This document shows, in pieces, positions 894 through 47,046 of a stretch of DNA of 64,000 nt. Positions within the stretch are counted from its first letter, which is position 1; each line of letters starts with the position of its first letter. Source of the stretch: Gammaproteobacteria bacterium (GTDB lineage Bacteria; Pseudomonadota; Gammaproteobacteria; DASZBR01); the NCBI GenBank assembly GCA_033763845.1, contig JANRJR010000070.1, positions 9,718 to 73,717 of the forward strand, in the 5' to 3' direction. A program made the translations under genes and the position numbers. The notes below the pieces were generated by a model. That model was not told the DNA's origin and ran no database searches. It was given only the letters and a program-made list of their open reading frames with translations.

Positions 894-901
894 ACTTCCT
901 C

Positions 902-1641: not shown

Positions 1642-1703
1642 CCCTGCTCCTTGGAAAGTTAAATATGGGTACAATCTTAATCCGATTAGAATATGAGGTC
1701 TAT

Positions 1704-2102: not shown

Positions 2103-2154
2103 GTAACATACTGGTATAAATCACAGTCATATTAACATAAAGTTAAGGTGATTC

Positions 2155-3024: not shown

Positions 3025-4331
3025 AAATCGCTGTGATTGGCGCAGGACTCGCGGGATTAACTGCCGCGTATCGATTACATCAAGCAGGAATTCACGCAGA
3101 TATTTTTGAAGCTCAGAACCGTGTTGGCGGAAGAGTGTTTTCAACACAAATCAAAAATTATTTAGGTAAATCCTCAACCGTTGAATGGGGTGGACAAAGC
3201 ATTACCGACGGTGGCGACACCAACCATCTTTTAGACCTCATTAGAGAATTCTCACTGAATACTCACGATATTACGATTAAGTTAAATTCTCGTGTTTATT
3301 GCAATGAAACCTATACTGATTTTATTCAATCGATTGGAAATACACCGCTTACACTCGAGAAAGTAGAAAAAACAGCTACTCAATCAGAATCTATTGGCCA
3401 TCTGATTGATGTGTTATTTAAAGATAATCCCGTCGCACATCAAGCCTTAATTACACGCATGACAGCATATGAAGGCGTGAATGCCTATGAACAATCGATT
3501 TATCATAATTTAGAGACTTTTATTTATGCCATTTCCGGCGGACTGTCTAAATTCCACGATGCGTTTTCGCACGAAAAAAACCAGATTGTCATGATGGGTA
3601 TCGTTGACGGAAATCAGCAATTGCCCAATTTAATGGCTGAAAAACTTAAAGATAAATTAAATCTCGAAAAAATATTATCCAAAGTTACCTTAACAACAAC
3701 AGGGGCAGAATTAATTTTCTCAGACAAGACAGTACTAAATTATGACAAAGTCATTCTTGCGGTGCCTATACCGCTTTATAAAAAAATCGATCTATCTGAG
3801 ACACATATTCCAAAGGATAGGTTAAATACTATTTATAATATTGGCTTTGGTCAAAACTACAAAATAGCTGTACCATATAATTTACGTACGCGAAACAATT
3901 ATCGATCAGTCATGACGGAAAACACGGTATCTTTTTTTAATACCGAAGAAAAAATTGCCTTGATATATGCAACACAACCTTTGGAAAACATTGAAAATCT
4001 ATGCAAAATTACCGCTGAGGGTTTAGGACTAGAACAACAATCTTACAACAATTTTACAACACACGACTGGAATACTGATCCGTTTGCGTTAGGCTCCTAT
4101 TCCGGATATTCCACAAAAGTCTCGAAAGAATTAGACGAACACGCCACCTTTAATAATATTATTTACAAAAAATTGTTTCTTCCCATCGAAAACAAGCTTT
4201 TTTTTGCGGGAGAACATACGACTTTATTAGATTGTATTGGCACAATGGAAGCGGCTGTAGAATCAGGCGAACGTATTGCTAATGCAATTATACAGGATAC
4301 TTCTCCTCAAACTCCGCATAGTGGCCTTTAA
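3021..4331 (+). CDS. FAD-dependent amine oxidase family protein
   Basis: Dinucleotide-binding motif MKIAVIGAGLAGLTAAYRL...FEAQNRVGGRV. ATGA overlap with the LysR gene. Confidence 0.8.
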   Translation: MKIAVIGAGLAGLTAAYRLHQAGIHADIFEAQNRVGGRVFSTQIKNYLGKSSTVEWGGQSITDGGDTNHLLDLIREFSLNTHDITIKLNSRVYCNETYTDFIQSIGNTPLTLEKVEKTATQSESIGHLIDVLFKDNPVAHQALITRMTAYEGVNAYEQSIYHNLETFIYAISGGLSKFHDAFSHEKNQIVMMGIVDGNQQLPNLMAEKLKDKLNLEKILSKVTLTTTGAELIFSDKTVLNYDKVILAVPIPLYKKIDLSETHIPKDRLNTIYNIGFGQNYKIAVPYNLRTRNNYRSVMTENTVSFFNTEEKIALIYATQPLENIENLCKITAEGLGLEQQSYNNFTTHDWNTDPFALGSYSGYSTKVSKELDEHATFNNIIYKKLFLPIENKLFFAGEHTTLLDCIGTMEAAVESGERIANAIIQDTSPQTPHSGL

Positions 4332-5883
4332 AGTCAATTAATTTTTTATTCTGTGGAATAAATAAAATACGATTCGCCGTTCTCTGAATAAAACTTCGAT
4401 CGTGGCTCACAAAAATAACCGTACCATTAAAATGATTTAAGGCTTTTACCAAGGCATCCGTGGCTTCAATATCTAAATGGTTTGTTGGTTCGTCTAATAC
4501 CAATACATTGCCCATTTCTAATACGATCTTTGCTAATAGTAATCGCGCGGCTTCGCCACCACTGATAGCCAAAATATCTTTTTCCACCTCATCCTTGGTA
4601 AACAATACTTGGCCCAATGTTTTACGCACGTTTTGTTCGGTAGTTTGTGTAGCGATATCTTTTAACCAATCAAATACTGTCATGTGTTTATTCAACAAAT
4701 CATGGTGATCTTGTGAGAAATAGCTCACATGGGTTTCGTATCCCCACTCAACTGCTCCCTCACTAGGCTCAATAAGATTCAGTAAAATTTTGATTAAAGT
4801 CGATTTACCGACGCCGTTTTCACCAATGATCGCAATTTTTTCACCACGCGACACATCAAACGTTACATTGGAAAATAATTTTTTATCGTTAAATTGTTTG
4901 GAAAGTGTTTTGACACGCAATGCCAGCTTTCCAGAATGTCGCTTCGAATGAAAATGAAAGTGGGGTGACACCCGAGAACTGTGTTTGATATCAGGCAACT
5001 CCATTTTTTCCAAGCGTTTTACACGAGATTGGGCTTGAATCGAGCGAGTGCCCGCACGAAAACGATCAATAAATTTTTGCAAATCCGCCATTTTATTTTC
5101 AATGTTTTTTTGCTCTTGTAATTTTTGCTCTTCAATTGTCTTCTTTTCTGTTAAAAACTTCTCATAAGTTCCACTGTATTGACGAATTTCGCCATAATCG
5201 ATATCAAGAATATGATCCGCCAATCTATTAATAAACTCGACGTCATGCGAAATAAATAGCACCAATCCTGTAAATTCATTTTTTAAATATTTTTCTAGCC
5301 ATCTGATTGAGATAATATCCAAGTGATTGGTCGGCTCATCGAGCAATAAGATATCTGGCTCTTCAAATAAAGCTTGCGCAAATAATACCCGCAATTTAAA
5401 TCCGCCGGATAAACTGCTAAGTGGCTTATGATGATATTCAGGTTGAATGCCCAAACCGATTAGTAATTTTTCAGCTAAGGCTAAAGCACTATAACCATCT
5501 TGTGCTGCTATCATTTCTTCGCAATGGCTTAATTGATGCGCAATCTCATCATTCCATTCATGTTCTGCCAATTGAAGTAATTTTTCTTTTTCCTGTAGGG
5601 CTTTCCACAATTTGGGCTTACCCTGTAAAACAATATCAGTAATAATGGAATTTTCATGACGGAATTGATCTTGTTTCAACCATCCGACTGTTATGCCCTT
5701 TGGAATGGAAACGCTACCTTCTAAAGGCTCTTCTTCACCCGTGATTAATTTAAAAAACGTTGATTTTCCGGCACCATTTGCCCCTACTAAAGCGTAGTGC
5801 ATTTTGTCGTTCAAGATGAGACTCACATCGAAGAACAGCAATTTTTGGCCATAGGCCATATGGAGTTGATGGATTTGAATCAT
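4288..5883 (-). CDS. ABC-F family ATPase (two ABC domains, YbiT/Uup-like)
   Basis: Two Walker A sites (GANGAGKST, GENGVGKST) and two LSGG signatures with an inter-domain linker. No transmembrane domain. Confidence 0.9.
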   Translation of the reverse strand: MIQIHQLHMAYGQKLLFFDVSLILNDKMHYALVGANGAGKSTFFKLITGEEEPLEGSVSIPKGITVGWLKQDQFRHENSIITDIVLQGKPKLWKALQEKEKLLQLAEHEWNDEIAHQLSHCEEMIAAQDGYSALALAEKLLIGLGIQPEYHHKPLSSLSGGFKLRVLFAQALFEEPDILLLDEPTNHLDIISIRWLEKYLKNEFTGLVLFISHDVEFINRLADHILDIDYGEIRQYSGTYEKFLTEKKTIEEQKLQEQKNIENKMADLQKFIDRFRAGTRSIQAQSRVKRLEKMELPDIKHSSRVSPHFHFHSKRHSGKLALRVKTLSKQFNDKKLFSNVTFDVSRGEKIAIIGENGVGKSTLIKILLNLIEPSEGAVEWGYETHVSYFSQDHHDLLNKHMTVFDWLKDIATQTTEQNVRKTLGQVLFTKDEVEKDILAISGGEAARLLLAKIVLEMGNVLVLDEPTNHLDIEATDALVKALNHFNGTVIFVSHDRSFIQRTANRILFIPQNKKLIDFKGHYAEFEEKYPV

Positions 5884-5925
5884 GGTTTTTCGCTTATTTT
5901 TAGCCGGGGTTGAATAATACCTAGA

Positions 5926-6482
5926 TTATAGTGTTACCGATAGCCTTCGATGCTTGTGTTTCCGTGAAGGATAGTATGCATCCAATGGCACCGACGCCCC
6001 CAACCGCCGATCAAAATTCCGCGTGTATTTTGAAGCCAATTGCGGATTCGTAATGATTAGCATGTTTTCGGCATTATGCGCTTGTGCGTTTTTACTGAAA
6101 TTGAAGCTGCCTGTAACAATCTTAGTATTATCTGATACCATAATTTTGTTATGCGCAATGTTCGGTCTGTAATCAATCCAAACAGGAACGCCTTCGTGTG
6201 CAAAAAACAACGCTGAACAGTATTTTCCTTGGGAATATTGCGACTTATCTAAAATTAACTTTACATCCACGCCGCGATGTTTCGCTAACACAACGGCTTT
6301 ACTGATCGACGGAGAAGTAAACTGGTACGCTTGAATCAATAAGATTTTCTGCGTGTTATCAATGACATCAACAATTTGCTGTGTGCAATTTTGACCTGGC
6401 GTAAAGCAGACTGAAATATCATCGGCTAATACCATACGCGATAACAGAATCAGCATTATTCCCAACATGATTTTTTTCATAA
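5926..6482 (-). CDS. phospholipase D / Nuc-like HKD-motif protein, secreted
   Basis: Single HKD motif HNKIMVSDNTKIVTGSFNFSKNAQAHNAEN. Signal peptide MKKIMLGIMLILLSRMVLA. Start set at the ATG at 6480-6482 after ggag. Confidence 0.8.
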
Positions 6483-6587
6483 GATTTCTCCAAATAAACA
6501 CGGGAAGTCTTATGATGTTGTGTTAAAACGCTAGTGAATCATCAACGGTTTTGCTACATTTGTCCATATTACATGGAGTTCGTCCTT

Positions 6588-7559
6588 ATGCTTATCGCTT
6601 ACTTGAAACGACAAACACTGGAAGCACATCAGATCACTGCTGAAAATCATATCTTACTCAAAGAAGCTATCTGGGTTGACCTCTTATCCCCCACAAAAAC
6701 AGAAGAAAAACTGGTCGAACAAAGCTTAACGCTCAACATTCCAACACGAGACGAAATGGTCGAAATCGAAACGTCGAGTCGACTTTATAAAGAAAACGAA
6801 ACACTCTTCATGACAGCTTCTTTTATTGCACAATCGAAAACTTCAGAACCGCGCATTGATCCCATTACCTTTGTACTTACTGAACAACAATTAATTACGA
6901 TACGCTATATCGAACCCCACGCGTTTAAATTTTTTATTGGTCAATTACCTAAAATTAATCCCGAAACCCACACCGCTCTGATACTATTAATTGAATTGCT
7001 TGAAGCAACCGTCGATCGACTTGCGGATATTTTAGAGCGCGTTGGCCGTCGTTTAGACAGCTATTCCAAAACCATTTTTCGTCCCACGACCAGCAAAGTT
7101 AGGAATTTAAATTATCAAAAATTGATGCGGGAAATTGGTTCTAGTGGTGATCTAGACACCAAAGCACGGGAGAGTTTAATTACATTGAATCGTCTTGTTT
7201 CATTCTTTGGACAAAGCGCAAACGCAAAATTTGATGCGGACGAACAATCTCGCATCATGACACTCAGCAAAGACATTGCATCTTTAAGTGATCATGCTAA
7301 TTTTTTATCAACAAAAGTGAATTTTTTGCTGGATGCCACATTGGGCATGGTCAATATTGAACAGAATAATATTATTAAAATATTTTCAGTGGCAGCAGTA
7401 ATATTTCTTCCACCTACACTTATTGCAAGCATATACGGCATGAATTTCCATTTTATACCGGAATTGTCATGGAAATATGGCTATTTATTTTCGATTGGAT
7501 TAATTGTTCTGGCTGCGTTTTTGCCGTATCGCTATTTTAAATATCGAAAGTGGTTATAG
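6588..7559 (+). CDS. corA: magnesium/cobalt transporter CorA
   Basis: C-terminal two-TM region with the YGMNF motif. Start at the ATG after ggag (6588); the longer ORF-track start at 6534 is possible. Confidence 0.85.
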   Translation: MLIAYLKRQTLEAHQITAENHILLKEAIWVDLLSPTKTEEKLVEQSLTLNIPTRDEMVEIETSSRLYKENETLFMTASFIAQSKTSEPRIDPITFVLTEQQLITIRYIEPHAFKFFIGQLPKINPETHTALILLIELLEATVDRLADILERVGRRLDSYSKTIFRPTTSKVRNLNYQKLMREIGSSGDLDTKARESLITLNRLVSFFGQSANAKFDADEQSRIMTLSKDIASLSDHANFLSTKVNFLLDATLGMVNIEQNNIIKIFSVAAVIFLPPTLIASIYGMNFHFIPELSWKYGYLFSIGLIVLAAFLPYRYFKYRKWL

Positions 7560-7576
7560 CTTAAAGGCAAGAAATC

Positions 7577-8101
7577 ATGGCAATTGAACAACTCATTGGC
7601 GACTACCAGACTTTCTTTTCAGATTTGCTGCATCGCCAGAAAAAAATTGGCATTGATATCAGCGGAATGCCTATGAGCCACTTGCTCTATCGCACTTCAA
7701 CGCTTCCTGAATATGAAATATTGCGCGATCAATTAAAATCTTTTTCCCGTGCATTTGTAGAAACGCAATTTAATGGACGGGCTGTCTCTGTATTCGTCCT
7801 TAAAGACGCCTTAAAACTTGAAGATAATTTCGAAGTCGATGTTATTGAACTACCCGCACCACGACCGGCACACATGTATCCCAGTGGTTTAGAAAGTATT
7901 GGTGTGGTAGTCGGTAAATCTTTACCAGAATTCATTAAAAAATATAGTAAGGTCTTAACAGGTGTAAAAGATCATGGCGAACATTGCCAACCGGCTTTTG
8001 TGACATTTGACAACGACAAGACATCAAAATTTTATAATATTTCATTATTAGAAATCGTTGCACGCCAGGGTTGGATCTTAGAAAAGCTGAATCTTGAATA
8101 A
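7577..8101 (+). CDS. YecM-like VOC-family protein
   Basis: Collinear with E. coli YecM from memory: ..HL.YR.ST...YE.LR..L...F.ET..NGR.V.VF.L.......ELP.P....YP..G.E.IG.VVG.. Confidence 0.65.
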   Translation: MAIEQLIGDYQTFFSDLLHRQKKIGIDISGMPMSHLLYRTSTLPEYEILRDQLKSFSRAFVETQFNGRAVSVFVLKDALKLEDNFEVDVIELPAPRPAHMYPSGLESIGVVVGKSLPEFIKKYSKVLTGVKDHGEHCQPAFVTFDNDKTSKFYNISLLEIVARQGWILEKLNLE

Positions 8102-21058: not shown

Positions 21059-22831
21059 ATGATTTCAATACTCACAACTGGTTTAGTCACAATTATAGGC
21101 ATTTTTTACTGCATGCTTATTCTCAGATCCGATTTTAGCTTGAGTGAAACAATCTGGTTAAGACATGCTACAAAAATCATTGCCATTCTCTCTGGATTAA
21201 CTTGTCTCTGGTTCATGCTTCGAACACTCATCGATACCAAATACCTTGCGATTCAGGACGGCATTTACGGTTTTAATTTTCTGCACCTTTTATCTTGTAA
21301 ATTAAAGCAAAGCATTTCTTCAACAATCCCATTTTTTCTAATGGCGATATTTTCAGGCATTTGCGGTCAACTACTGAAGTTAAAAAAAGGTATGCCCAGC
21401 AGAAAAACTAGCGGTAATTTTGGATCTGCTAATTGGGCAGATACATCAGATTTAACTGCATTGGGAGCTTACTCATCAGAAACAGGGCTTTTTATTGGTT
21501 CTGACGATAAAGGTCGAAGCTTATACTTACCACTTTGCAACAAATTAACCATTTCACCACCAGGTGGAGGCAAAACAACCTCATCGACCATCCCTGCACT
21601 TTTATCACACCACGGTCCCGTATTTGTTTTTGATATTAAAGGAGAACTGTGGGCAACAACAGCTAGATATCGTGCTGAAGTGTTAGGAAGACACGTTATT
21701 GTCATTGATCCTTACGGGGTTACAGCAAGCAAAGATTTTATTGAAGGTAAATCTGAAACGTTACGTAAAAAATATCACTTTAACCCGTTCGATTGGGTGC
21801 CAGAATTTCAGGGCGATAGAGATAGAATGATTAATGCGTTTGCCTCGTCTTTCATCATTAATGAAGGTGGTTACTCTACTCACTTTGATGAAAACGCTAA
21901 AATCTTAATCCGTGGATATATTGATTTTATTGTGAGCTCTAAACCAAAAGAAGAACGTACGCTTTCAACACTATACGGTTTAATGTCTGAAGATGTGACA
22001 TCAGCAACTAATACTTTCAATCAAATGCTCACCAGCAGTGGGCGAGCTGAAGCGGCTGCTAATCAAATTAGTCGCGTAGGGAATGACGAAAAAGGCAGCA
22101 TTCTTTCTACCAGTTATCGCCAAATCGATTGGATGAGTGATTACAATATCCAAGCAACGCTATCTCACAGCAATTTTGATTTACGTGATTTCTTAGCGGG
22201 TAATATGGATATTTATATCGTCTTACCTGAGGATCAAATCAAAGAACATAGCCGCTTAGTAAGAATGATGCTTTCTTTATTAATGAGTCTTATTGTGCAA
22301 GCAAATCCCAGTGAATTACCTAAGCAAAAAATATTGTTCTTATTGGATGAATTAGCTCAGCTAGGATACTGCCCCGATGTTGAACAATGTATTGAAGTAT
22401 TACGTTCTCGTGGTGTCGTCATATGGACCGTTTTCCAATCCCTGAATCAGATTGAATTATTTAAAAAACCTGATTTATTTAAAGGCGCCCCTTTAAAACA
22501 AATTTTTACAACTGATGACACTAAAACCATGCAATGGATTCAAGCCATTGGTGGCAAAAAAACTGTTGTCACTCAAACGGTTTCTACCAACAAAGGAACT
22601 TCGAAACAAAGTAATAAAATTATCGCTGGAGGAACATCCTCTCAAGGAGAAAGTGAAAGCGCACATGAAACGGGTGTTGATTTAATCCCCTTAAATGAAA
22701 TTCGGGAATTACCCCGCGATGAACAATTTATTTTTCTGCATGGTGCAAAACCGATTCGATGCAAAAAAGTGCGCTATTTCGAATCCGAAGAATTCAAAGG
22801 TAAGTATGACAAAAACCCTCTTGAAAAATAA
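21059..22831 (+). CDS. traG: type IV coupling protein TraG/VirD4
   Basis: Two N-terminal TM helices. Walker A PPGGGKTT. T4CP-like length. Confidence 0.9.
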   Translation: MISILTTGLVTIIGIFYCMLILRSDFSLSETIWLRHATKIIAILSGLTCLWFMLRTLIDTKYLAIQDGIYGFNFLHLLSCKLKQSISSTIPFFLMAIFSGICGQLLKLKKGMPSRKTSGNFGSANWADTSDLTALGAYSSETGLFIGSDDKGRSLYLPLCNKLTISPPGGGKTTSSTIPALLSHHGPVFVFDIKGELWATTARYRAEVLGRHVIVIDPYGVTASKDFIEGKSETLRKKYHFNPFDWVPEFQGDRDRMINAFASSFIINEGGYSTHFDENAKILIRGYIDFIVSSKPKEERTLSTLYGLMSEDVTSATNTFNQMLTSSGRAEAAANQISRVGNDEKGSILSTSYRQIDWMSDYNIQATLSHSNFDLRDFLAGNMDIYIVLPEDQIKEHSRLVRMMLSLLMSLIVQANPSELPKQKILFLLDELAQLGYCPDVEQCIEVLRSRGVVIWTVFQSLNQIELFKKPDLFKGAPLKQIFTTDDTKTMQWIQAIGGKKTVVTQTVSTNKGTSKQSNKIIAGGTSSQGESESAHETGVDLIPLNEIRELPRDEQFIFLHGAKPIRCKKVRYFESEEFKGKYDKNPLEK

Positions 22832-22857
22832 GAATTCAGATACAGATAGAACCTGCT

Positions 22858-23214
22858 TCACAAAGATAAAACTTGTCTGAGTGCATCATCTAACATATGA
22901 AGGTCAGCAGGAGATAACGCACCTGCTGGAAAAGTGTGCGGAGTTTGAATCGAATTAGGAGTAAGTAAACGACTTTTATCCACTGTTCTAATCTGATCGC
23001 AAACGGCGACAGCGTTTATTCCCAAACTATTAACGGGAACTACGATAGGCGGATTTACATTTTTAGTAACACTTGATAAGGGGACAACTACCACCGTACG
23101 CCTTGCCTTATTTATAGGTGTCGCACTCACTATTACACATGGACGTATTTTTTTTATTTCCGAACCAATTGTTGGCTCAAGATTAACCAAATAAATATCA
23201 CCCCTCTTCATCAT
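22858..23214 (-). CDS. PemK/MazF-family toxin
   Basis: MKRGDIYLVNLEPTIGSEIKKIRPCVIVS is the PemK signature. Confidence 0.85.
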   Translation of the reverse strand: MMKRGDIYLVNLEPTIGSEIKKIRPCVIVSATPINKARRTVVVVPLSSVTKNVNPPIVVPVNSLGINAVAVCDQIRTVDKSRLLTPNSIQTPHTFPAGALSPADLHMLDDALRQVLSL

Positions 23215-23431
23215 TTAGCCCATCCTTCAGTGTCACGTCCCATTCATCCATTTCCTTGTTCAAGGCCACATCTTTTTCTACGGCAAGTGCGCACTTGTAT
23301 AAAGCTTCTTCTCGCCTTTCTATCTCTTCTTCTATTAAATGAGAAATCACCTTGCTACGCTGACGCTCTGGCACATAGTGCCTAAATTTCTCTGCTAAAG
23401 CATTCGGCACTGAAATAAGTAATCGTTCCAT
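23198..23431 (-). CDS. ribbon-helix-helix (CopG-like) antitoxin
   Basis: RLLISVPNALAEKF...QRSKVISHLI RHH motif. Overlaps the toxin start by 17 nt. Confidence 0.7.
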   Translation of the reverse strand: MERLLISVPNALAEKFRHYVPERQRSKVISHLIEEEIERREEALYKCALAVEKDVALNKEMDEWDVTLKDGLNDEEG

Positions 23432-23610
23432 ATCTTGCCCCCCTCTAGGACTTAAGCAAAATTATACTACACTGTATATAGATGATCAATATATATAATA
23501 TACATTTCCGACTCTTCCCTGCCACGATGAAGCCGTTAACTAGGCCGATATCCGCATGTGCTATACTATTTATGGTTAAAAATAAAGAAGTATCCTAGAG
23601 GGTAAAAATT

Positions 23611-24603
23611 ATGGACGTCAAACAAGAAGTTATCCCTGAAAGCTTTGGTTTTTTCGGCGTTACTACCCATGCTCAAAAAAAGGCTGTTAAAAGATTATTT
23701 CCCCTACTCAAAGAGATTCAAAATAATAACGAAAAATTTTGCCGTCTAGTTCTCTTGTGGAATGAACTTTCAAAGAGAAAATATGAATCTGAAAGAAAAT
23801 ATGAGCTCCTCTATAAAATTATATGTTTTACAAACCTCATTTTAAGTTTAACGCCCTCTTTAGAACAAGAGGATGAAGCCAGCTTAATTAAAGACTGCGA
23901 CGATAATACCGCAATGAATACACTTAAACCTAAACAACAATTTGCTGTTTTTATCACCATTAGGAATATTGCTGCACATTGGGCTCATATTTTTTATGAA
24001 CCCGATATCGCAGATTTTGTTGAGGAATTTTTAAAGATAGCTGAAAAAGGCATTTGCTGTCCTAACTTTATATTAAAACTTCAACAAATTGGTGATGAAT
24101 CTACCGCAAGCTCCGGCCCGGAGGGATTACCCACTTATTTGAAAGCAGGTACTCCCGAAGAAATAAAGGGAAAAATAAACAAGTTATTTTGCCAAACCGC
24201 CTACTTCCTTAAGAAGGCAGAGTTCTTTCTCGAAGCTAATGATCTTCACAGCGCTTGTTTTGCTCTTATTGCAGCTGGAAATTGCGGCAGGGATTTTAAT
24301 CGCTCAAAAATGAACCCTAAGACAAAGGGATCCATTATGGCGAGGCTGAATGCAATCAGAAATGAAATAGCCCATATTTATGAAAATGAAAGTTTTGAAC
24401 AAGAAGCGTATAATGCTGTTACACGAAGCAGAAATGAGGTGAGAATTATATTAGATACGTTAAAAGATGAAGCCGCTAACTTGGCTTTAGAATATGACAT
24501 TGATACCTACTTTAATAGTACAGAACAACTGATGGATGGAAGTGATTCATCTCCAAGACCTTATGAAGCGGAAAGATTAAATATATTCGAGGGTAAGCTA
24601 TGA
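23611..24603 (+). CDS. hypothetical protein
   Basis: 330-aa ORF. Translationally coupled (ATGA) to the next ORF. Confidence 0.5.
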   Translation: MDVKQEVIPESFGFFGVTTHAQKKAVKRLFPLLKEIQNNNEKFCRLVLLWNELSKRKYESERKYELLYKIICFTNLILSLTPSLEQEDEASLIKDCDDNTAMNTLKPKQQFAVFITIRNIAAHWAHIFYEPDIADFVEEFLKIAEKGICCPNFILKLQQIGDESTASSGPEGLPTYLKAGTPEEIKGKINKLFCQTAYFLKKAEFFLEANDLHSACFALIAAGNCGRDFNRSKMNPKTKGSIMARLNAIRNEIAHIYENESFEQEAYNAVTRSRNEVRIILDTLKDEAANLALEYDIDTYFNSTEQLMDGSDSSPRPYEAERLNIFEGKL

Positions 24604-25286
24604 ATGAAGAAATAAACAATATTAGAGATTTTATTAAACATCTTTGCCAAGAAGAGGTTGTTTCATTTTTAGAAAAAACATCATTGGAAAAAGCCGGTGG
24701 CAAAATTTTCCTTGTATTTCCTCAATTATCTTACCGACAAAAAGATTTACATTTTTATGTGGAAGATAGTAAAAAATTAAGCCTTCTTGAAGGAGCCGAG
24801 GTGACATGTACCATACAAGACAAGCTTGGTTACGATTTCACTTCAGATGATATTGGTAATAAAATTGAAGTAACTTTCCAAAGCAGACTTAGAAAAGATG
24901 GAGACAAAACAGCATTCCTTGATCGCGTTCCTTTAACCGTCCAAGCACTTAAGGACAAAAGTATTGAGCAATTTCTTGCCCGCAACTACCCATACACCCT
25001 TTCTGCAGTACAACCAAGAACTACAGAAAGAAAAAACAGTGATGAAGAAAACGTAGAGCAAACTGAAAAATTCGCGGCTTTGCGCCACGATTTGCAGAAA
25101 GCTGCTGAAACTGGGATAGAGGCTTTACAAAAGATTAATCAAAAATGTCGCTCAGAAAACCCCAGGGAGCGTCAGTTTAGTCAGACTGAAATCGTAGCCC
25201 TTAAGGAATCTTTAAACGATGCTTTAAAACTATTAGAGGGTATTTCTACGCCTTCTTCACAGCTGAATTCTACAAAGAGAAAATAA
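24600..25286 (+). CDS. hypothetical protein
   Basis: 228-aa ORF. Confidence 0.5.
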   Translation: MNEEINNIRDFIKHLCQEEVVSFLEKTSLEKAGGKIFLVFPQLSYRQKDLHFYVEDSKKLSLLEGAEVTCTIQDKLGYDFTSDDIGNKIEVTFQSRLRKDGDKTAFLDRVPLTVQALKDKSIEQFLARNYPYTLSAVQPRTTERKNSDEENVEQTEKFAALRHDLQKAAETGIEALQKINQKCRSENPRERQFSQTEIVALKESLNDALKLLEGISTPSSQLNSTKRK

Positions 25287-25358
25287 ATATTTTTCTAGCT
25301 ATTTTTTACTTCCTCTAGTATGGCAGAATAAATTGTTATCATTTGATTAGCACGTGCA

Positions 25359-28196
25359 TCAATAATGCCTTACTTGATTTACTCCCTTTTTATTTACTAA
25401 ATTACGGGCAAGATTTTCTGATTTAGACCTAATCAGTGTGATTAAAATATTTATATCTTGTTGGGTATACTCCTTTTTATTCAGCCGCTCTTGAATGGCT
25501 TTAAACCCTCCGACCTCATATATTTTAATGACACTGAATCTGTTGTTTTCAATTTCACCCCCCATTTCCGAACGACCCATCAATTCTTCAGAAAATTTCT
25601 GCATATTAAGGCTATTCTCCACAGCTAATACGGAATAATGCCGACTTTCCTCTAACGAACGACAACGAGCAGCATGCGACATACTTACGAGTTCAGCCTG
25701 TTTAATTTCTAACTCAACGTATTGCTTTAATAAGTCTGGGAGAGATGGCGGTTTATCAATTTGATGGCTGTTCTCAGCTAGACACAATTTATTGTTTTGA
25801 ATAAATTTGGTTTTGATTTTTTCCCGTACCTGCTTAAGCTTTTCACTTATAAGGGCGGGTAATTTTTGCAAAAACCCTTCGTTATTAATTCCACGCCGCT
25901 CACAAAATGCCAATGGGTAATCCAATACACTGTCTTTTCTGGGCTTCCTGCTCACATTATTTTTTAAAGCTTCGATATTTCGGTGAGTCTGTTTATTTGC
26001 ATACACATGACAACTTTCTCGATGACGACTCATGGCCACATAAGCTAAATATTGATTCCACCATCTTCCTCCCAAATAAACAAAGCTATGATTGAAGGTA
26101 GCGCCTTGCGACTTATGAACAGTCGCAGCATACCCATAGGTAAAATCTCGATAAATGCTTGGGTTAATTACAATCTGTTTGGTGGGCTCATCGTCGAGTA
26201 CTACTGTAAAGGATAAAACTTTGCCTGTTTCACTCAATCGGATATTTTTAATTTCTCCAAAATGCCCATTGCTGACATCAATTTCTTTATCATTGAGAAG
26301 AAATAATATTCTGTCACCTGAACTGATATGAATTTCACCTCGACTAGAATTTACGGTATACCCTTTAGTAATTTCGTTTTGTTCGATGCGCTTTTGGCGA
26401 AGCATCATATTTAATTCCTTCACATCTTTGTTGCGATGTGCCATCACCAAATAGTCTTTTAAATCTTGTGGTTTAAGGCGGTTTTTTAATTTACGTAAAC
26501 CATCCCAATCATCCACCAACTTTTGCTTTGCGCTATAGTCATCTGATCTGAAATTAATAAACCCATTTTGGTAATAACGATTAACAGCCTCTCGGGTATA
26601 ACCTTTGGAAAATTCTTTTGTAGCTTCTCTCTGCCATTCTTCATTCTGGCGATACACATGTTGAAGCACTTCATGTTTTAAGTGCAATCGCTCCAACACT
26701 GCACGTAATGGACTGCCCGGGCCAACAGGTTGAAGCTGAGCAAGATCTCCAACTACGGCAAGCTTTGCGTTGGTCTTGTTCACAATCGTTAAAACAGATT
26801 CCATAGCAATACAGTCAGTCATGCCAGCTTCATCCATCACAATAACATCTCGAGACGTTAAAGTAATGATTCCGTTCTCCACACAAAACCGAAAAGACTC
26901 TATTGTGCGACTGGGAATACCCGCTTCTTTTTGTAATGTTCGAGCAGCTTTTCCAGTAGGTGCTATGCCATACACATTTAAGCCTTTCGCTTTCCAAACT
27001 GCATTTGCCGCTCCCAACGTAAAACTTTTACCCGTGCCCGCTTTACCGAGCACACACGCGATTGCCGTTTTAGATACCAGATGTTCAACTGCAGTTCGCT
27101 GCTCGCTGGTTAGCCGTTTTCCAATTTTTACCTGATATCTTTCAATGGCTTTATCAATTTTATGTTTTGCAATTCGAATATGATTGCGTTTCTGGAGTTT
27201 CTCTGTAGTGGCCTGGATGTTATTTTCAATATCGAACATTCGTCGTGTTGTATATCGCTCTTGGCCATCTTCTCCAACTCCTAAAGAAATTAACGCTTTA
27301 GATTTTTTAATGCTCTCCATCGCTGAATAAAATTCCGCATCATCATCTACATACGCTAAAAGCGCTTTGGCTAAATCTTTTTCACGAAAAACAGATTCAT
27401 GATGCTCAATCGTTTGAAAAATCTTCCTAGCCAACAGCTCAGGTTTTTGCAAAATCCGTTTTAAATTTTCTTTTTTGATTTCTTGATATTCAGCTTTACG
27501 ATCTGAAAGCTTTTCCCGTTTTTCAATTTCTTCACTGGCATGCCCTCGGTGAATACTGGGAATTAAATCAATGCCTTGGTCTTTGTAGGAGCGATGATCA
27601 ATACGCACGTTATGTTGATGAAGTTTTAAATGAAAGTTCGCATATTCAGCCCATTTTTCTCGCCACACATAAAGCAAAGATTTATCATTCCATTCAGAAA
27701 CTTTTTTTCCGAAACCCGATTGGACTAATTCCCGCGTTGTAAGCATCACATGCACATGAGGATTTCCTTTATCCCAATGTATACTCCAATCCGCGATCAT
27801 TCCTCTCTCAGAAAATTGGTTCTGAATAAATTCTCTTGCAAGACAAACACTTTGTTCTTCATTCAACTCAATTGGCAAAGAAAATTCTACTTCTCTAGCT
27901 AGACGCGCATCAATTCGCTCTTCAGATTTCTCCACAAGATTCCATAAATGTTGTGATGCAACATTACTCGATTTAAGAGATTCTTGCTGAAGTACATCTA
28001 AATTTTTTACCCATTGAGGAGAGTTAGCAGGAATAGTAATTTCTGAATGAACCACGTCCGGTTTATTTTCATAATTCCAGGTACGATTACATTGTTCATC
28101 AAAAATTTTGGTGGCGCGACGGTACGCGATAGATGCAACAGCATTTCTGCCCTTGCCCCGGGAAATAATTTTTACATTAAAATGATATATTGCCAT
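25359..28196 (-). CDS. traA: conjugative relaxase with MobA/MobL N-terminus and AAA_30/UvrD-like helicase C-terminus (TraA-like)
   Basis: N-terminus MAIYHFNVKIISRGKGRNAVASIAYR is the MobA/MobL signature. Walker A VLGKAGTGKSF in the C-terminal half. Confidence 0.9.
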   Translation of the reverse strand: MAIYHFNVKIISRGKGRNAVASIAYRRATKIFDEQCNRTWNYENKPDVVHSEITIPANSPQWVKNLDVLQQESLKSSNVASQHLWNLVEKSEERIDARLAREVEFSLPIELNEEQSVCLAREFIQNQFSERGMIADWSIHWDKGNPHVHVMLTTRELVQSGFGKKVSEWNDKSLLYVWREKWAEYANFHLKLHQHNVRIDHRSYKDQGIDLIPSIHRGHASEEIEKREKLSDRKAEYQEIKKENLKRILQKPELLARKIFQTIEHHESVFREKDLAKALLAYVDDDAEFYSAMESIKKSKALISLGVGEDGQERYTTRRMFDIENNIQATTEKLQKRNHIRIAKHKIDKAIERYQVKIGKRLTSEQRTAVEHLVSKTAIACVLGKAGTGKSFTLGAANAVWKAKGLNVYGIAPTGKAARTLQKEAGIPSRTIESFRFCVENGIITLTSRDVIVMDEAGMTDCIAMESVLTIVNKTNAKLAVVGDLAQLQPVGPGSPLRAVLERLHLKHEVLQHVYRQNEEWQREATKEFSKGYTREAVNRYYQNGFINFRSDDYSAKQKLVDDWDGLRKLKNRLKPQDLKDYLVMAHRNKDVKELNMMLRQKRIEQNEITKGYTVNSSRGEIHISSGDRILFLLNDKEIDVSNGHFGEIKNIRLSETGKVLSFTVVLDDEPTKQIVINPSIYRDFTYGYAATVHKSQGATFNHSFVYLGGRWWNQYLAYVAMSRHRESCHVYANKQTHRNIEALKNNVSRKPRKDSVLDYPLAFCERRGINNEGFLQKLPALISEKLKQVREKIKTKFIQNNKLCLAENSHQIDKPPSLPDLLKQYVELEIKQAELVSMSHAARCRSLEESRHYSVLAVENSLNMQKFSEELMGRSEMGGEIENNRFSVIKIYEVGGFKAIQERLNKKEYTQQDINILITLIRSKSENLARNLVNKKGVNQVRHY

Positions 28197-28238
28197 GATC
28201 AATCTCAAATTAATTATTATTCAATCTCTAAGCACAAT

Positions 28239-28259
28239 GTTGTCTGCATAGCAGGCAAC
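28239..28259. promoter_or_regulatory. candidate oriT-region inverted repeat
   Basis: gttgtctgc-ata-gcaggcaac (9-bp arms, one mismatch) in the 185-bp divergent region between the relaxase and the traC-like gene. Confidence 0.25.
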
Positions 28260-28381
28260 ATGTAAGTGCGCCTTTGGACGGTATGTGATTTTTTGAAAAG
28301 TATATGAAACTGCTTGTAAGAAAGAAAATACTTTCGTATTGTTTTGAATGAGTGATGTAAACGTTAATAATTTAAGAGGAA

Positions 28382-28660
28382 ATGACTATGACTGATTATC
28401 ATAAAAAGCTGACCATAATACAGAAACAACGTCAAAAACTTATTGAAACCGAAAAAGTTTTAATCGAAAAACGCAAAAAAGAAATTTCAGATCTTGCCGA
28501 AAAATTTAATCTTTTAACTGTCGACGATAAAATTTTAATTAATTTCTTTGCTTACTTTAAAGAGCACCATCATGAACCTCCCCCAAAAACTCCGCACAAC
28601 TCAAGCAAGCATCCATCGTCTCAACCTGAAATATGCGAGACTGAGAATGCAAGAACGTAA
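28382..28660 (+). CDS. TraC-like small Dtr accessory protein (tentative)
   Basis: Small basic coiled-coil ORF divergent from the relaxase, in the Ti-like position traA | oriT | traC traD. Confidence 0.35.
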   Translation: MTMTDYHKKLTIIQKQRQKLIETEKVLIEKRKKEISDLAEKFNLLTVDDKILINFFAYFKEHHHEPPPKTPHNSSKHPSSQPEICETENART

Positions 28661-28871
28661 ACAAGACACGCGGCAAAAAATTCAGTGGGGCGGGTTAATT
28701 AAAAAGGCCGGGCTTCATGAAGAACCTCCACCAGTTTTATTGGGATTGCTGATTGAGGCAAAAGAAAATCTTGAAAGTAAATCGGGTGAAAAATTTCGGG
28801 GGGAGTATCGATTGAAAGGCGATATTGTTTTTACATGTGAAAGGTCAGGGGCGAGCAAAGACCACCCCTGA
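28572..28871 (+). CDS. TraD-like conjugal transfer protein (tentative start)
   Basis: ARLRMQERKQDTRQKIQWGGLIKKAGL resembles the Ti-plasmid TraD core (RERKQDTR.KI.LGGL..KAGL). Overlaps the preceding ORF in another frame. Start could be 28548, 28572 or 28647. Confidence 0.5.
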   Translation: MNLPQKLRTTQASIHRLNLKYARLRMQERKQDTRQKIQWGGLIKKAGLHEEPPPVLLGLLIEAKENLESKSGEKFRGEYRLKGDIVFTCERSGASKDHP

Positions 28872-28883
28872 TTCTCTACTACT

Positions 28884-29405
28884 CTACAAACATGAGAACA
28901 CACGAATCTTACCGTCAACCTCAATATCTAGGTAATCACTAATAAATAAGTCTTCCGCAAAAGATTCATAATCAAAGTAATTACGAATATAATTGGGTAA
29001 TTTCGCTAACTTAGCATCAATCAACTGAGCTGCAAACTCAACTTTACTGCGATATTCACCGTGATAATTTTCTTCGATCGCTAGTCTAGCATCATCAACA
29101 TCACCACCGTAATACTCGGTAAGTGCTGCTCCAAGCTTACCATGCTCTTTTAAAAATTCAGCAATCTCAACGACTTTTTCAAAATCCATAGATTCACTTA
29201 TATGAATACTAAAGAAATTTTGATAGTCATGTATCGCCCATTCTTCTGCAAATGGCATTCGATTTTTTTTGAGCATTGCGTTTACCTCAGCCCAAATATG
29301 ATCAACGCCTAACGTTACATCAATCCAGACTCCATACAATCTGCCATTGTTATACAGCTCAAGACATGCCACATAAATGGATGGATTTTCCTCAATGTTA
29401 CCCAT
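28884..29405 (-). CDS. ardA: antirestriction protein ArdA
   Basis: IYVACLELYNNGRLYGVWIDV...AEEWAIHDYQNF matches the ArdA N-terminal signature as I recall it. Acidic C-terminal half. Confidence 0.7.
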   Translation of the reverse strand: MGNIEENPSIYVACLELYNNGRLYGVWIDVTLGVDHIWAEVNAMLKKNRMPFAEEWAIHDYQNFFSIHISESMDFEKVVEIAEFLKEHGKLGAALTEYYGGDVDDARLAIEENYHGEYRSKVEFAAQLIDAKLAKLPNYIRNYFDYESFAEDLFISDYLDIEVDGKIRVFSCL

Positions 29406-41151: not shown

Positions 41152-41352
41152 TCAATACTGAGGAACAATAGTGCTTATGGAGCTTTTATAGATAGCTTGT
41201 TTTACAACACCATCAAGCCAAATTACTGTCTCATCCTGTCCTACCAAAACTCCTTTAAGCTTAATTCCATGCTTTAAAAAGACGGCAAGCTCCACCCGAT
41301 CTGCAATTAATTTTTCAATGAACTGATGCTCTATGGAAATACGTTTTGACAT
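41152..41352 (-). CDS. hfq: Hfq-like Sm-fold RNA chaperone paralog
   Basis: Sm1 GIKLKGVLVGQDETVIWL and Sm2 YKSSISTIVP align with Hfq GIKLQGQIESFDQFVILL / YKHAISTVVP. Confidence 0.7.
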   Translation of the reverse strand: MSKRISIEHQFIEKLIADRVELAVFLKHGIKLKGVLVGQDETVIWLDGVVKQAIYKSSISTIVPQY

Positions 41353-41779
41353 AATGAGGTCCCTCTCATTTATAAGGCTAGCGCAGTAATATTAAAGTCT
41401 TTTAGGGTTAATTTGAAAGAAGCATACACAGAATTTCGCTCATATCCAACGCACACCCCATGCATAATTCTTACCCCTCAAAAAAAGCCCGATAATCAAC
41501 CGTTCTCCGCCGTAAAACATTAGCAACTATATCTTGTCCCATTAGCAATGAAATTTAAGTTTGTACAGTTTAAGAATCCAACCAATAAAATTCTTTCATC
41601 AAATTTTGATGTATGTTAGGATAGTTACCAACTGTTACGTAATTCAGATCTCCTAGAAAAATATACAAAAACTTTGAATCACTGCCGTAACAAAACTCAT
41701 CACACTAATACACAAAAAAGGCTCACACTAATTATCATCAAAAGCTTCAACAACAACTTTGATATTAGCAGGAATAAAA

Positions 41780-42514
41780 ATGGACATTAGCACTGATGAA
41801 AATATTTTATTCAAAACAGACACAATAACGAAAAAAAACCTGTGTGAACTAAATAGTTTCTTAGACGAATGGGATCAACGCTACAAATTGCAAGCGCAAA
41901 GCATTCCCCTGTTTATAGAAACAGAAAATCGCGGCTGGAACATTAAACAGAAAAAATTTTTTGCGAGGGCTTTTTATCATGTTCGCGGACATTTTCATGA
42001 CTTCTTATGGTACTTAGGTAACCACGCTCCCGACAAAAGATCGAAAGAAGTTATTCTGCATAATTTAATGGAAGAATTTGGTGGGCAAGCCCAATCACAT
42101 GAGAAACTGTACATCCATTTTGCTAAAAGTTTGGACGTACAAGACATAAACGATGAAATTCTTGAACAGACGACCTATCTTCCATTTATCAAAGAGTTCA
42201 ATAAAGGCCATTTAAGTCGTCTTTATACCCACTCCTGGCACGACAATTTAGCAATCTTCTCAGCCTATGAGAGATTGGACAATATTGATTACACCAACCT
42301 AATGACATTAGTAAAAAACTGGGGTATTCCCGATAAAGATAGTGTATTCTTCAAAGTTCATATGTTAGTTGAGCACTTTGAAACAACGCTCTCGACTCTC
42401 TTGTCCATTTGGACAATAAATAAGCAAACAGTTATTGATGCGTTTAATTTCATAGCCTCTCATCAACTACAAATGTGGAAGAATTTATCAGCGGCTGTGG
42501 TGGAATATTCATGA
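41780..42514 (+). CDS. heme-oxygenase-like fold protein (TenA/PqqC / iron-containing redox enzyme family)
   Basis: FYHVRGHFHDFLWYLGNHAPD...HNLMEEFGG...SHEKLY pattern of His/Glu-rich helices. Family-level guess only. Confidence 0.5.
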   Translation: MDISTDENILFKTDTITKKNLCELNSFLDEWDQRYKLQAQSIPLFIETENRGWNIKQKKFFARAFYHVRGHFHDFLWYLGNHAPDKRSKEVILHNLMEEFGGQAQSHEKLYIHFAKSLDVQDINDEILEQTTYLPFIKEFNKGHLSRLYTHSWHDNLAIFSAYERLDNIDYTNLMTLVKNWGIPDKDSVFFKVHMLVEHFETTLSTLLSIWTINKQTVIDAFNFIASHQLQMWKNLSAAVVEYS

Positions 42515-44915: not shown

Positions 44916-45665
44916 TTACTTCGAAACTTTAATACGATGCCATATCACTGGGGCAGCATACACCAGCTCAACATCGTACAAAATTGGAGTCTGTAACGCT
45001 GTTTGAGTATTCAGACAAATAAGATTGTAATGTCCAGGTTTGCTTCCCAAACGCAGTTGGCGCACGCTGTTCTCACCATTTTGAGTTTCAATAATGCAGT
45101 TTTTTCCTGCTGCCTCTGTAATTTCTTCATCGTAATATCTAATGCCTGCTACATAGTCACCCTGTTTATAAAATGGTTCCATTCCATCATCCACAATTTC
45201 CAAATAAATTGCTTCATCATGTAAATTACAAAAAGCTGCCAATTCAGTTTGTATACTTTCAACATCGGTTTTATTTTTCTTCTTACTTTTAAATGGCTGC
45301 CGTTCAATATTTTCTATGGCGCCTTGTAACTCTCCATTTTCAAATAATTTACTCACCACTCCGTCCGGCCCATTCCCCACTCCTTGTAAAAGCCAGCCCA
45401 CACTGCATCGAATACCTTCACTTCTTAAGGCCAGGAGTATTCGCTTAGCTCCTTGCTCAGTTAAGCCAGTGTGGATTCCGTCTTCCCAAGAGCGAAGCGT
45501 ATTGGCACTGATGTTATATTTATTTTCAAATGCTTTACGCGATGAAAAACCTGCCATAAGCCGTAAACGCTTTAAGCGTTCACCCCGCTCTGCTTTCGAT
45601 GACATAGCTTCGTTCACTGAAGTTTGACTAACTTTTGTCGTTTTTTTGCGTTTCATTTCCGGCAT
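44916..45665 (-). CDS. XRE-family HTH / S24 (LexA/cI-like) regulator
   Basis: HTH (RLKRLRLMAGFSSRKAFENKYNISANTLRSWEDG) and S24-like C-terminus (EIVDDGMEPFYKQGDYVAG...VRQLRLG). Confidence 0.7.
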   Translation of the reverse strand: MPEMKRKKTTKVSQTSVNEAMSSKAERGERLKRLRLMAGFSSRKAFENKYNISANTLRSWEDGIHTGLTEQGAKRILLALRSEGIRCSVGWLLQGVGNGPDGVVSKLFENGELQGAIENIERQPFKSKKKNKTDVESIQTELAAFCNLHDEAIYLEIVDDGMEPFYKQGDYVAGIRYYDEEITEAAGKNCIIETQNGENSVRQLRLGSKPGHYNLICLNTQTALQTPILYDVELVYAAPVIWHRIKVSK

Positions 45666-45703: not shown

Positions 45704-45720
45704 TCATCAAAATTTGATGA
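45704..45720. promoter_or_regulatory. palindrome tcatcaaa-a-tttgatga; the acactcatcaa half-site recurs 30 bp downstream
   Basis: Lies in the divergent region between the cI-like gene (minus) and the CheY-like gene (plus). A second acactcatcaa is at 45731-45742. Confidence 0.3.
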
Positions 45721-45893: not shown

Positions 45894-46322
45894 ATGGGAA
45901 AGAATATGGAAATTAGCACTTCAAGACAAAAACAGGCGTTGGTTGTTGAAGACAACGCCATGATTCAAAAGATTCACTCAGCATTTCTAAAATCGTTTAA
46001 CTACGGGGTCACCGCAGTAAGAACAGGCGAAGAAGCCATTATCATTCTTAAAAGCAATGCTACTTTCGATGTCATCCTCCTAGATATCAATTTACCCCAA
46101 ATTAACGGCTATGAAGTTAGCCGCATTATTCGAGAGGAACTAAAAGATATATCTACCCCAATCATGGGAGTAAGCACTAATACAGCTAGTGAAATTCGAG
46201 ATAAATGTTTGTCCGCAGGAATAAATGAAATTTATACCAAACCTATTCTGCAAGAAACGATAAATAATTTTTTACAAACATATGGAGCCAAAACCAATTC
46301 AGGGCCAGCAATCCAGCGTTAG
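45894..46322 (+). CDS. single-domain response regulator (CheY-like receiver)
   Basis: ALVVEDNAMIQ ... VILLDINLPQINGYEV ... TKP. Confidence 0.8.
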   Translation: MGKNMEISTSRQKQALVVEDNAMIQKIHSAFLKSFNYGVTAVRTGEEAIIILKSNATFDVILLDINLPQINGYEVSRIIREELKDISTPIMGVSTNTASEIRDKCLSAGINEIYTKPILQETINNFLQTYGAKTNSGPAIQR

Positions 46323-46422: not shown

Positions 46423-47046
46423 ATGAGAAAAATGAAAATGAAAATTTTTGAAATACGTAAAAAAAATCTCAGTCTACTCGTTGAAGAAACGGGTGGGATT
46501 ACGGCATTGGCTAAACACCTAAAAAAATCACAGAGCCAAATTAGCCAACTACTTATGAAGAAGTCTACTAGAAAAATCGGCGATAAATTAGCCATTAGCA
46601 TTGAAAAGCACTTCAAAAAACCACGCGGCTGGCTAGATCTAGAAAATGTTCACATACAATATTCTGTTGTGCCCCTAATTAAATGGACAGAGATTACCAA
46701 AGATATCAAACATTCTTTAGCCAACAACCAGTTAATTGCTACACAACCGCGCGTAAGTTCTAAATCATTCGCATTACAAATCTTTAATGACACAATGGAA
46801 TCAACTCATAGCATTTCATTTCCTAAGCATTCTATTGTTATTGTTGATCCCGAAAAACCTGCAGAACCAGACTCATTTGCTATTGTTCAAGATGGAAAAA
46901 GCAATTCAGCCATTTTGAGACAGTTGATTTTCGAGGGAAATCACATTTATCTGAAACCCTTGAATCCCCTTTACCCTCTTACAAAACTAAACAAAAAACC
47001 TGTTGTTTATGGCGTAGTATGCGGAATACGTCTAGCGATTGAATAG
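46423..47046 (+). CDS. XRE-family HTH / S24-like regulator
   Basis: HTH (GITALAKHLKKSQSQISQLL) and S24-like C-terminus (IVIVDPEKPAEPDSFAIVQDG...LRQLIFEGNHIYLKPLNP). Confidence 0.65.
   Translation: MRKMKMKIFEIRKKNLSLLVEETGGITALAKHLKKSQSQISQLLMKKSTRKIGDKLAISIEKHFKKPRGWLDLENVHIQYSVVPLIKWTEITKDIKHSLANNQLIATQPRVSSKSFALQIFNDTMESTHSISFPKHSIVIVDPEKPAEPDSFAIVQDGKSNSAILRQLIFEGNHIYLKPLNPLYPLTKLNKKPVVYGVVCGIRLAIE

Follow-up and report, generated by a model that had tools for sequence, protein, structure and literature searches.

A divergent, core-only Hfq-family protein borne as cargo on a Trb-type conjugative element of a Coxiellaceae-like gammaproteobacterium

Mobile genetic elements carry copies of global RNA-binding regulators, among them FinO/ProQ, the CsrA paralogues found on Legionella integrative and conjugative elements (ICEs) and Hfq3 of plasmid pXO1, and we know of no previous study of an Hfq that a Gram-negative intracellular bacterium carries on such a conjugative element. 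The subject of this analysis is an hfq-family gene within a 64-kb stretch of a gammaproteobacterial contig (JANRJR010000070.1, positions 9,718 to 73,717; hereafter the window), a divergent, mobile-element-borne homologue of a global RNA-binding regulator and therefore of a type that is already known. The plasmid pXO1 of Bacillus anthracis encodes Hfq3, whose overexpression is toxic through residues of the distal face (PMC5348863). Hfq3 resembles the window Hfq in being an Hfq homologue on a mobile replicon and in acting via the face that is conserved in the window Hfq, but it belongs to a Gram-positive plasmid rather than an integrated Trb-type element, chromosomal paralogues are known in B. 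anthracis, and the Hfqs of Bacillus plasmids are not close to the window Hfq (36-39% identity, E 3e-4 to 8e-4). In Legionella ICEs, homologues of csrA and lexA lie within the regulatory regions (PMC4010831), and an ICE-borne csrT is described in a citing article as substituting for some CsrA functions (Abbott et al. 2015, cited in PMC5655016). CsrT and LvrC are comparable to the window Hfq as homologues of a global RNA-binding regulator encoded beside LexA- or CI-like repressors on an element with a type IV secretion system (T4SS) within the order Legionellales, although they are of the CsrA family rather than Sm proteins, so the analogy is functional only. Finally, cis-encoded RNAs control hfq genes in Legionella pneumophila (Anti-hfq, PMC5225317) and Burkholderia cenocepacia (h2cR, PMC3474761), a precedent for the control of hfq by an RNA encoded at its own locus, but no promoter, terminator, structure or conservation indicative of such an RNA was found at the window hfq.

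With moderate confidence, the locus as a whole is best explained as encoding a specialised distal-face Hfq that belongs to the element and is preceded by a divergent promoter region with an operator linked to a CI-like repressor. The 66-amino-acid open reading frame (ORF; ATG start, product MSKRISIEHQFIEKLIADRVELAVFLKHGIKLKGVLVGQDETVIWLDGVVKQAIYKSSISTIVPQY) is a genuine Hfq-family Sm protein, far beyond chance. The Pfam family PF17209 (Hfq) scored 43.9 bits over residues 9-65 (E 1.8e-11; family cut-off 27), and a phmmer comparison with the Hfq chains of the PDB (E 5.5e-10) aligned residues 1-65 and placed the start in the register of canonical Hfq. An AlphaFold2 model based on 67 homologues reached a mean pLDDT of 94.5 and consists of a helix (residues 7-18) followed by five strands; all of the best 50 Foldseek matches of this model in the PDB were Hfq proteins, with Escherichia coli Hfq in first place (TM 0.87-0.95, rmsd 0.8-1.0 Å). 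The initial annotation, which had called this ORF and made its identity as an Hfq dependent on a predicted Sm fold, is thus upheld on both points. The NCBI label of the protein (MDX2165067.1) is "RNA chaperone Hfq" (gammaproteobacterial metagenome-assembled genome, MAG; 96-kb contig), and two independent Logan contigs carry an identical hfq copy followed by the same downstream gene, the adjacency being identical in Logan contig L004. The window contains this one Hfq gene, and no homologue of CsrA or of ProQ/FinO was found within its 64 kb.

Judged by its sequence, the protein nevertheless differs from canonical Hfq and is a divergent, stripped-down form. It shares with the Hfq of gammaproteobacteria such as E. 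coli and Pseudomonas aeruginosa the Sm fold, the start register and approximately 40% identity over 64 residues, but it lacks a C-terminal tail and misses the cut-offs of both NCBIfam Hfq equivalogs (TIGR02383 and NF001602; the two scores are 45.1 with a cut-off of 61.7 and 52.8 with a cut-off of 95). Individual residues were compared in an alignment with the Hfq proteins of E. coli, P. aeruginosa, Bacillus subtilis and Staphylococcus aureus and 122 related single-domain hits. The window Hfq keeps R19, F25, G29, I30, K31, D40, Q52, Y55, K56 and T61, a set that covers the distal A-R-N face, the core of the Sm1 motif and the invariant lysine. The distal face is complete (F25, G29, I30, K31, Q52 and T61 at the positions of Y25, G29, I30, K31, Q52 and T61), with phenylalanine at position 25 as in Gram-positive bacteria and tyrosine in E. 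coli. In contrast to these kept residues, the protein carries the changes Q8E, R16I, R17A, F39Q, F42T and H57S. The rim reads I16-A17-D18-R19 (IADR) instead of the canonical RRER, leaving the arginine patch R16/R17/R19 incomplete, and the proximal pocket for uridine and the RNA 3' end consists of E8, T42, K56 and S57 instead of Q8, F42, K56 and H57, so that one of four residues (K56) is kept. Both Sm motifs had been described as kept, which is accurate for Sm1, where L26, G29, I30, L32, G34, D40 and L46 align with the canonical residues and the hydrophobic core is intact, but not for Sm2, which reads Y55-K56-S57-S58-I59 (YKSSI) instead of YKHAI with His57 and Ala58 replaced; His57 is present in 92 of the 123 related single-domain hits.

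The replaced residues have defined roles in other species: Q8, F42 and H57 anchor the U-rich 3' ends of small RNAs (sRNAs), and the rim arginines R16 and R17 catalyse annealing (PMC3753642, PMC4174437). Arg16 is among the most conserved Hfq residues (PMC3753642) and His57 contacts both hydroxyls (2' and 3') at the 3' end of the bound RNA (PMC4174437). The loss of these residues weakens the earlier suggestion that the protein could reprogramme the sRNA regulation of its host. Assembly need not be affected by H57S, because the P. aeruginosa Hfq mutants H57A and H57T (3m4g and 3inz, both among the PDB matches) still crystallise as hexamers. Since one RNA-binding face is kept and two others are lost, the window Hfq would be a natural separation-of-function variant for probing an Hfq that acts through its distal face only.

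Combining these features, the window Hfq is expected to assemble the usual Sm ring and to bind A-rich (A-R-N) RNA on its conserved distal face, and, having lost the rim residues Arg16 and Arg17 and the pocket residues Gln8, Phe42 and His57, it should anchor U-tailed sRNAs poorly and be inefficient at catalysing annealing. Most likely it would be a specialised regulator, encoded by the element, that binds mRNA to sequester, stabilise or repress a small number of transcripts, with the effector-like genes directly 3' of hfq, which may be co-transcribed with it, as plausible targets. It would then be a functional analogue of the CsrA paralogues CsrT and LvrC that Legionella ICEs carry beside LexA-like repressors, its expression might be tied to the CI-like switch of the element, and it would probably not serve as a second global sRNA matchmaker.

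The matchmaker function is the rival that survives best, although it is rather unlikely: the protein might be a competent general sRNA-mRNA matchmaker, either as an extra copy that adds Hfq capacity or as the sole, element-borne Hfq of a lineage without a chromosomal one. The Hfq-like fold, the retention of Y55, K56, Q52, D40 and the distal face and the NCBI label are in keeping with such a function, and no apparent hfq is reported for Coxiella burnetii, a relative of the host lineage that is in culture (PMC4064990; bioRxiv 10.1101/679134). Against this stand the loss of Arg16, Arg17 and Phe39, the change of three of the four proximal-pocket residues and the scores below both equivalog cut-offs. 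The role of sole Hfq is further opposed by a genome that encodes an ABC-F homologue (P0156) 79% identical to the ABC-F protein of the window and carries a chromosomal atypical Hfq (P0284); the source of P0284 is probably closely related to the host, and on account of this protein the host lineage is probably not free of Hfq. The window Hfq also bears on the question of whether the Coxiella lineage, reported to lack hfq, truly does without Sm-type chaperones.

The relatives of the window Hfq are distant. An exhaustive search of representative proteins returned 462 hits at E≤1e-3 and none at E≤1e-30, and the closest relative, identified by a profile search, is a protein with 58% identity (P0279); sets of 5.8 billion clustered proteins and 1.84 billion representative ones contained nothing closer. 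A single-sequence, word-indexed protein search recovered only the window Hfq itself, and a scan of the GTDB genomes only relatives with 37-38% identity in unrelated taxa. The plasmid collection (PLSDB) and the phage collection gave 29 and 4 Hfq hits, respectively, with a best identity of 43.8%; most of these hits are mislabelled chromosomes or chromids, and none comes from Legionella, Coxiella or Rickettsiella. Genuine plasmids in PLSDB seldom carry an Hfq gene, and none of those genes is close to the window Hfq or from the Legionellales.

The nearest relatives constitute a set of atypical, metagenomic Hfqs with 44-58% identity to the window Hfq (P0279, 58%; P0004, 52%; P0011; P0010/P0275; P0012/P0278; P0284/P0306; P0023). 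These proteins are 64-76 amino acids long and tail-less, all lack Arg16, most lack Phe39 and Phe42 and many lack His57, and the GC content of their contigs is as low as that of the window (33-37% and 37%, respectively). In a neighbour-joining tree the window Hfq grouped with P0004 and P0279 (bootstrap 51%) as part of the loose atypical set; it fell outside the clade of canonical gammaproteobacterial Hfqs (96%), and the tree has an unsupported backbone. The recurrence of the substitution pattern in the nearest relatives argues for selection rather than decay and bears on a second rival, that the gene is a neutral or decaying passenger with no present function. The low identity to even the nearest of the billions of proteins searched and the replacement of several hallmark residues would fit a passenger, but the ORF is intact with a good ribosome-binding site and a start in register with canonical Hfq, the fold is predicted very confidently, the distal face is conserved along with the hydrophobic core, and several independent relatives carry these substitutions too, which makes this explanation improbable.

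The loci of the atypical relatives resemble the window in that none has a miaA-hfq-hflX setting, but none was found on a Trb element, and their settings are mixed (plasmid-like contigs, effector islands and core chromosome). P0012/P0278 is encoded on a plasmid-like contig (L010) where two Hfq genes accompany ParA, resolvase, YefM-YoeB and ankyrin genes, P0004 on a contig (L006) with LPD25, a helix-turn-helix (HTH) gene and a homologue of the 992-amino-acid TPR protein of the window, and P0023 (L011) beside a VirB1-like SLT gene. P0284 (L073) is chromosomal and lies among GerE, ankyrin and Ras/Roc-like genes, and P0275 (L035, 16064-17362 and 6055-14342) has a core chromosomal position between thyA and the dcw cluster (mraW, ftsI, mur genes and mraY). 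A gene for HMG-CoA reductase is found on the same contig as P0275. The atypical group is thus both chromosomal and mobile and not strictly mobile. On three related low-GC contigs (L010, 7394-9265; L012, 5604-6110; L013, 979-3821), short Hfq genes cluster in twos or threes over a few kb and alternate with ankyrin-repeat genes, and on a 276-kb contig (P0153) a span of 3 kb contains an ankyrin gene and three Hfq genes.

A broader reading of these relatives is offered tentatively and is itself doubtful, being drawn from a weakly supported tree and a handful of genomic contexts. The window Hfq and its relatives may represent an unrecognised lineage of minimal Hfqs (tail-less, without Arg16 and Phe42 and often without His57) that diversified, sometimes to two or three copies per locus, in Coxiellaceae- or Legionellales-like intracellular bacteria and travels between them aboard plasmids and conjugative elements along with eukaryote-like effector genes; its members would act as dedicated post-transcriptional controllers of this cargo. 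If true, the atypical Hfq whose existence has long been suspected in the Coxiella lineage, regarded as lacking Hfq, would be found among these proteins.

The window hfq is borne as regulatory cargo of a Trb-type conjugative element bordered by chromosomal genes of an uncultured, Coxiellaceae-like gammaproteobacterium (table 1). On one side of the gene is the DNA-processing module (type IV coupling protein, relaxase and ArdA; 21-29 kb) and on the other the trb operon (55-63 kb); chromosomal-type genes occupy 1-8 kb. The host is considered Coxiellaceae-like because the best named relatives of the ABC-F protein in the chromosomal flank are from a Coxiella sp. MAG (70%), Rickettsiella (68%) and Aquirickettsiella (67%). 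Hfq genes of Gammaproteobacteria typically reside in a miaA-hfq-hflX neighbourhood, and both miaA and hflX are absent from the 64-kb window; Pfam annotation of the neighbours bears out the initial placement of the gene among effector-like and regulatory cargo of a mobile element. The cargo includes effector-like or eukaryote-like genes encoding a protein with a Ulp1/C48 protease domain (30975-32525, minus strand), a trypsin-like protease (35296-36582, plus strand) and a 1682-amino-acid WD40 protein (48948-53996, minus strand). The closest plasmid matches of VirB4/TrbE show 36-37% identity. No tRNA gene marking an integration site and no recognisable integrase were found in the window, so the far end of the element lies outside it.

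Table 1. Coordinates of the hfq gene, its putative control sites and other features of the window
Feature	Position	Strand	Basis or remark
hfq-family gene, 66 amino acids, core-only (without C-terminal tail)	41152..41352	-	ORF call, Pfam, AlphaFold2, Foldseek
Shine-Dalgarno-like sequence GAGAGGGA	41360..41367	-	Read from sequence; 7 nt 5' of hfq ATG
Divergent intergenic region, hfq (-) / redox-enzyme gene (+)	41353..41779	.	GC 34%
15-bp palindrome CATCAAA-T-TTTGATG, operator-like	41597..41611	.	Inside 18-nt exact match
Second palindrome copy	45705..45719	.	10 bp 5' of sigma-70-like promoter; ~40 bp 5' of S24-like gene ATG at 45665
TPR-containing effector-like protein, 992 amino acids	38046..41024	-	Pfam; probable ATG 40994
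Iron-containing redox enzyme (Haem_oxygenas_2)	41780..42514	+	Pfam; first gene of plus-strand cassette; start read from sequence
Histidine kinase	42525-43826	+	Redox-enzyme cassette
Response regulator	43862-44908	+	Redox-enzyme cassette
Weak S24-like protein	44916..45665	-	Pfam Peptidase_S24 1.9e-4, below cut-off; divergent from response regulator/CI operon
Receiver-only response regulator	45894..46322	+	Pfam Response_reg 2e-20; first gene after strong promoter, 5' of CI-like gene
Lambda-CI-like repressor (Cro/YdaS-type HTH and S24 autopeptidase)	46423..47046	+	Pfam Peptidase_S24 6e-11, YdaS HTH
Chromosome-type flank: YceI, LysR, amine oxidase, ABC-F, PLD, CorA, YecM	1..8101	.	Pfam
DNA-processing module as a whole (coupling protein, relaxase, ArdA)	21059..29405	.	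Pfam
VirD4-type coupling protein (T4CP)	21059-22831	+	Pfam
MobA/MobL relaxase-helicase	25359-28208	-	Pfam
ArdA	28884-29405	-	Pfam
IS110 transposase	29769-30776		Pfam
Trb-type (P-type) mating-pair-formation operon trbB-C-D-E-J-L-F-G-I	55083..63417	-	Pfam T2SSE, TrbC, VirB3, CagE_TrbE_VirB, TrbL, VirB8, CagX, TrbI

The location on a conjugative element also bears on a third, highly improbable explanation, in which the Sm ring is re-used without RNA, either as a protein adaptor with the TrbB/VirB11 ATPase as a possible partner or for DNA binding during transfer. Cyanobacterial Hfq reportedly binds the pilus ATPase PilB1, the T4SS of the element includes a PilB-family ATPase (TrbB, T2SSE domain), the proximal RNA pocket of the window Hfq is degenerate and a cyanobacterial Hfq-related model gave a weak match of 13.7 bits. 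This match is far under the cut-off of 52, however, the RNA-binding distal face is conserved, the window Hfq has no C-terminal tail, the part implicated in the DNA binding of E. coli Hfq, and hfq lies 14 kb from the trb operon with cargo genes as its immediate neighbours.

The region upstream of hfq had been described as a 400-bp untranslated region that could hold a regulatory or cis-antisense RNA. A long non-coding stretch is indeed present, measuring 406 nt up to a TTG codon (41759) or 427 nt up to the better ATG start of the redox-enzyme gene (41780, with an AGGAA ribosome-binding site) and containing only ORFs of 31-38 amino acids, but it is a divergent intergenic region and thus not demonstrably the 5' untranslated region of hfq. 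Among the 62 intergenic gaps of the window it ranks fifth in length, and it is the longest divergent one (the next measure 339 and 306 nt). The proposed RNA found no support in any of the searches: Rfam gave no match at the hfq locus even at E≤1 and none over the whole window at gathering scores, neither strand folded better than shuffled sequence (z -0.80 for the minus and +1.13 for the plus strand), no terminator was predicted in the intergenic region by the scan, and no antisense promoter was predicted within hfq. The three promoter-like hits within the region equal the 3.0 expected by chance. The intergenic DNA showed no similarity to the plasmid collection or to the fetched loci, except for two identical Logan contigs. 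Scans of viral and metagenome contigs gave nothing closer than 47%, leaving no orthologous locus for an upstream comparison, and a long upstream region is kept by none of the relatives; the hfq homologue on L006 starts only 36 nt after an HTH gene. All candidate hfq promoters match 8 of 12 consensus positions, and the proximal one (TTCAAA-17-TAATAT, 41417-41389) would give a leader of approximately 30 nt.

Least probable of the rivals is accordingly an upstream region that encodes a cis-antisense or other RNA controlling hfq, for which the precedents of Anti-hfq and h2cR (PMC5225317, PMC3474761), approximately 250 nt without an assigned role, a weak minus-strand hairpin and U7 and a plus-strand promoter-like site (41562-41591) could be adduced, but which is opposed by the lack of an Rfam hit, folding signal or scan-predicted terminator, by promoter-like hits at chance level with none antisense to hfq itself, and by a sequence conserved in no relative and absent from the plasmid collection. 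The region looks instead like an ordinary divergent promoter region with a repressor site and not like the seat of a hidden regulatory RNA, a negative but useful result that leaves a probable repressor operator as its one distinctive element.

Two further features of this region were observed. The hairpin followed by U7 lies at about 41480-41520, approximately 130 nt 5' of the hfq start, has a predicted energy of about -8 to -10 kcal/mol, which is too weak for the terminator scan, and is a possible attenuator or orphan terminator. Nearer to the redox-enzyme gene, a tandem direct repeat (two copies of TCACACTAAT, 23 bp apart, 41700-41745) overlaps a promoter-like site (TACACA-18-TATCAT) located 41 nt 5' of the redox-enzyme/two-component cassette, and this repeat may be a response-regulator binding site. 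An origin of transfer (oriT) or attachment site (att) in the region was considered and dropped, as the relaxase gene is 13 kb away and repeats typical of either were not found.

The probable operator is a perfect 15-bp palindrome (CATCAAA-N-TTTGATG) that occurs within an 18-nt exact match between 41594-41611 (TTTCATCAAATTTTGATG) and 45705-45722 (blastn-short E 3e-4). These are the only two sites in the 64 kb at ≤1 mismatch, the mean expected by chance being 0.82 at ≤2 mismatches, and the palindrome was found in none of the 73 fetched loci. Both copies sit in divergent intergenic regions. The copy upstream of hfq is located just 3' of the plus-strand promoter-like site and overlaps a weak minus-strand -10 candidate. 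The other copy adjoins a promoter that matches the sigma-70 consensus at 11 of 12 positions (TTGACA-17-TATTAT, 45729-45757, plus strand) and faces the gene for the receiver-only response regulator and, after it, the gene for the CI-like repressor. The S24-like protein encoded on the other side of this copy was considered as the operator binder and set aside, as a PDB search gave no LexA or CI match, and the CI-like protein, whose C-terminal domain matched lambda cI in the PDB (E 5e-11), is therefore the preferred binder. In the simplest reading the CI-like repressor binds the palindrome and autoregulates its own operon. The shared palindrome further suggests that hfq and/or the divergent redox-enzyme/two-component cassette belong to the regulon of this repressor and are switched on when the element is derepressed, which makes the putative operator a concrete, testable link between hfq and the CI-like switch of the element.

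Downstream of hfq, the gene for the 992-amino-acid TPR protein follows on the same strand after 127-157 nt. No terminator was predicted by the scan between the two genes, the first minus-strand terminator-like site past hfq being located at 36774-36752, and the TPR gene may therefore be co-transcribed with hfq. A homologue of the TPR protein (24.6% identity over 577 amino acids, E 9e-32) is encoded at 10040-11653 on L006, approximately 6 kb from the hfq relative P0004, which hints at a loose linkage of the TPR gene and hfq.

Several points weigh against a specialised distal-face Hfq under the control of the element. The proposed function is derived from residue homology with the Hfq proteins of E. 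coli and Salmonella, and an Hfq with few rim arginines can still act in sRNA regulation, as the Listeria protein (rim RKEK) does (PMC3753642). Some of the atypical Hfqs occupy core chromosomal settings (beside the dcw cluster on L035, and on L073). The palindrome occurs only twice, its binder is a guess, and its position does not tell which of the divergent genes would be controlled, while every candidate hfq promoter scores only 8 of 12. Co-transcription with the TPR gene is proposed only because the scan predicted no terminator, and the gap of 127-157 nt between the two genes does hold some weak hairpins that have short runs of U.

Minor observations concern the element outside its hfq region. 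The left junction lies somewhere in 8102-14017, past YecM (7577-8101), an interval that includes a 479-amino-acid ORF (9306-10745) without a Pfam match. Between the genes for the coupling protein and the relaxase, a 77-amino-acid ORF (23198-23431, minus strand) has a 31-residue stretch in common with an ORF at 4303-4395 on L010 (68% identity, E 5e-9).

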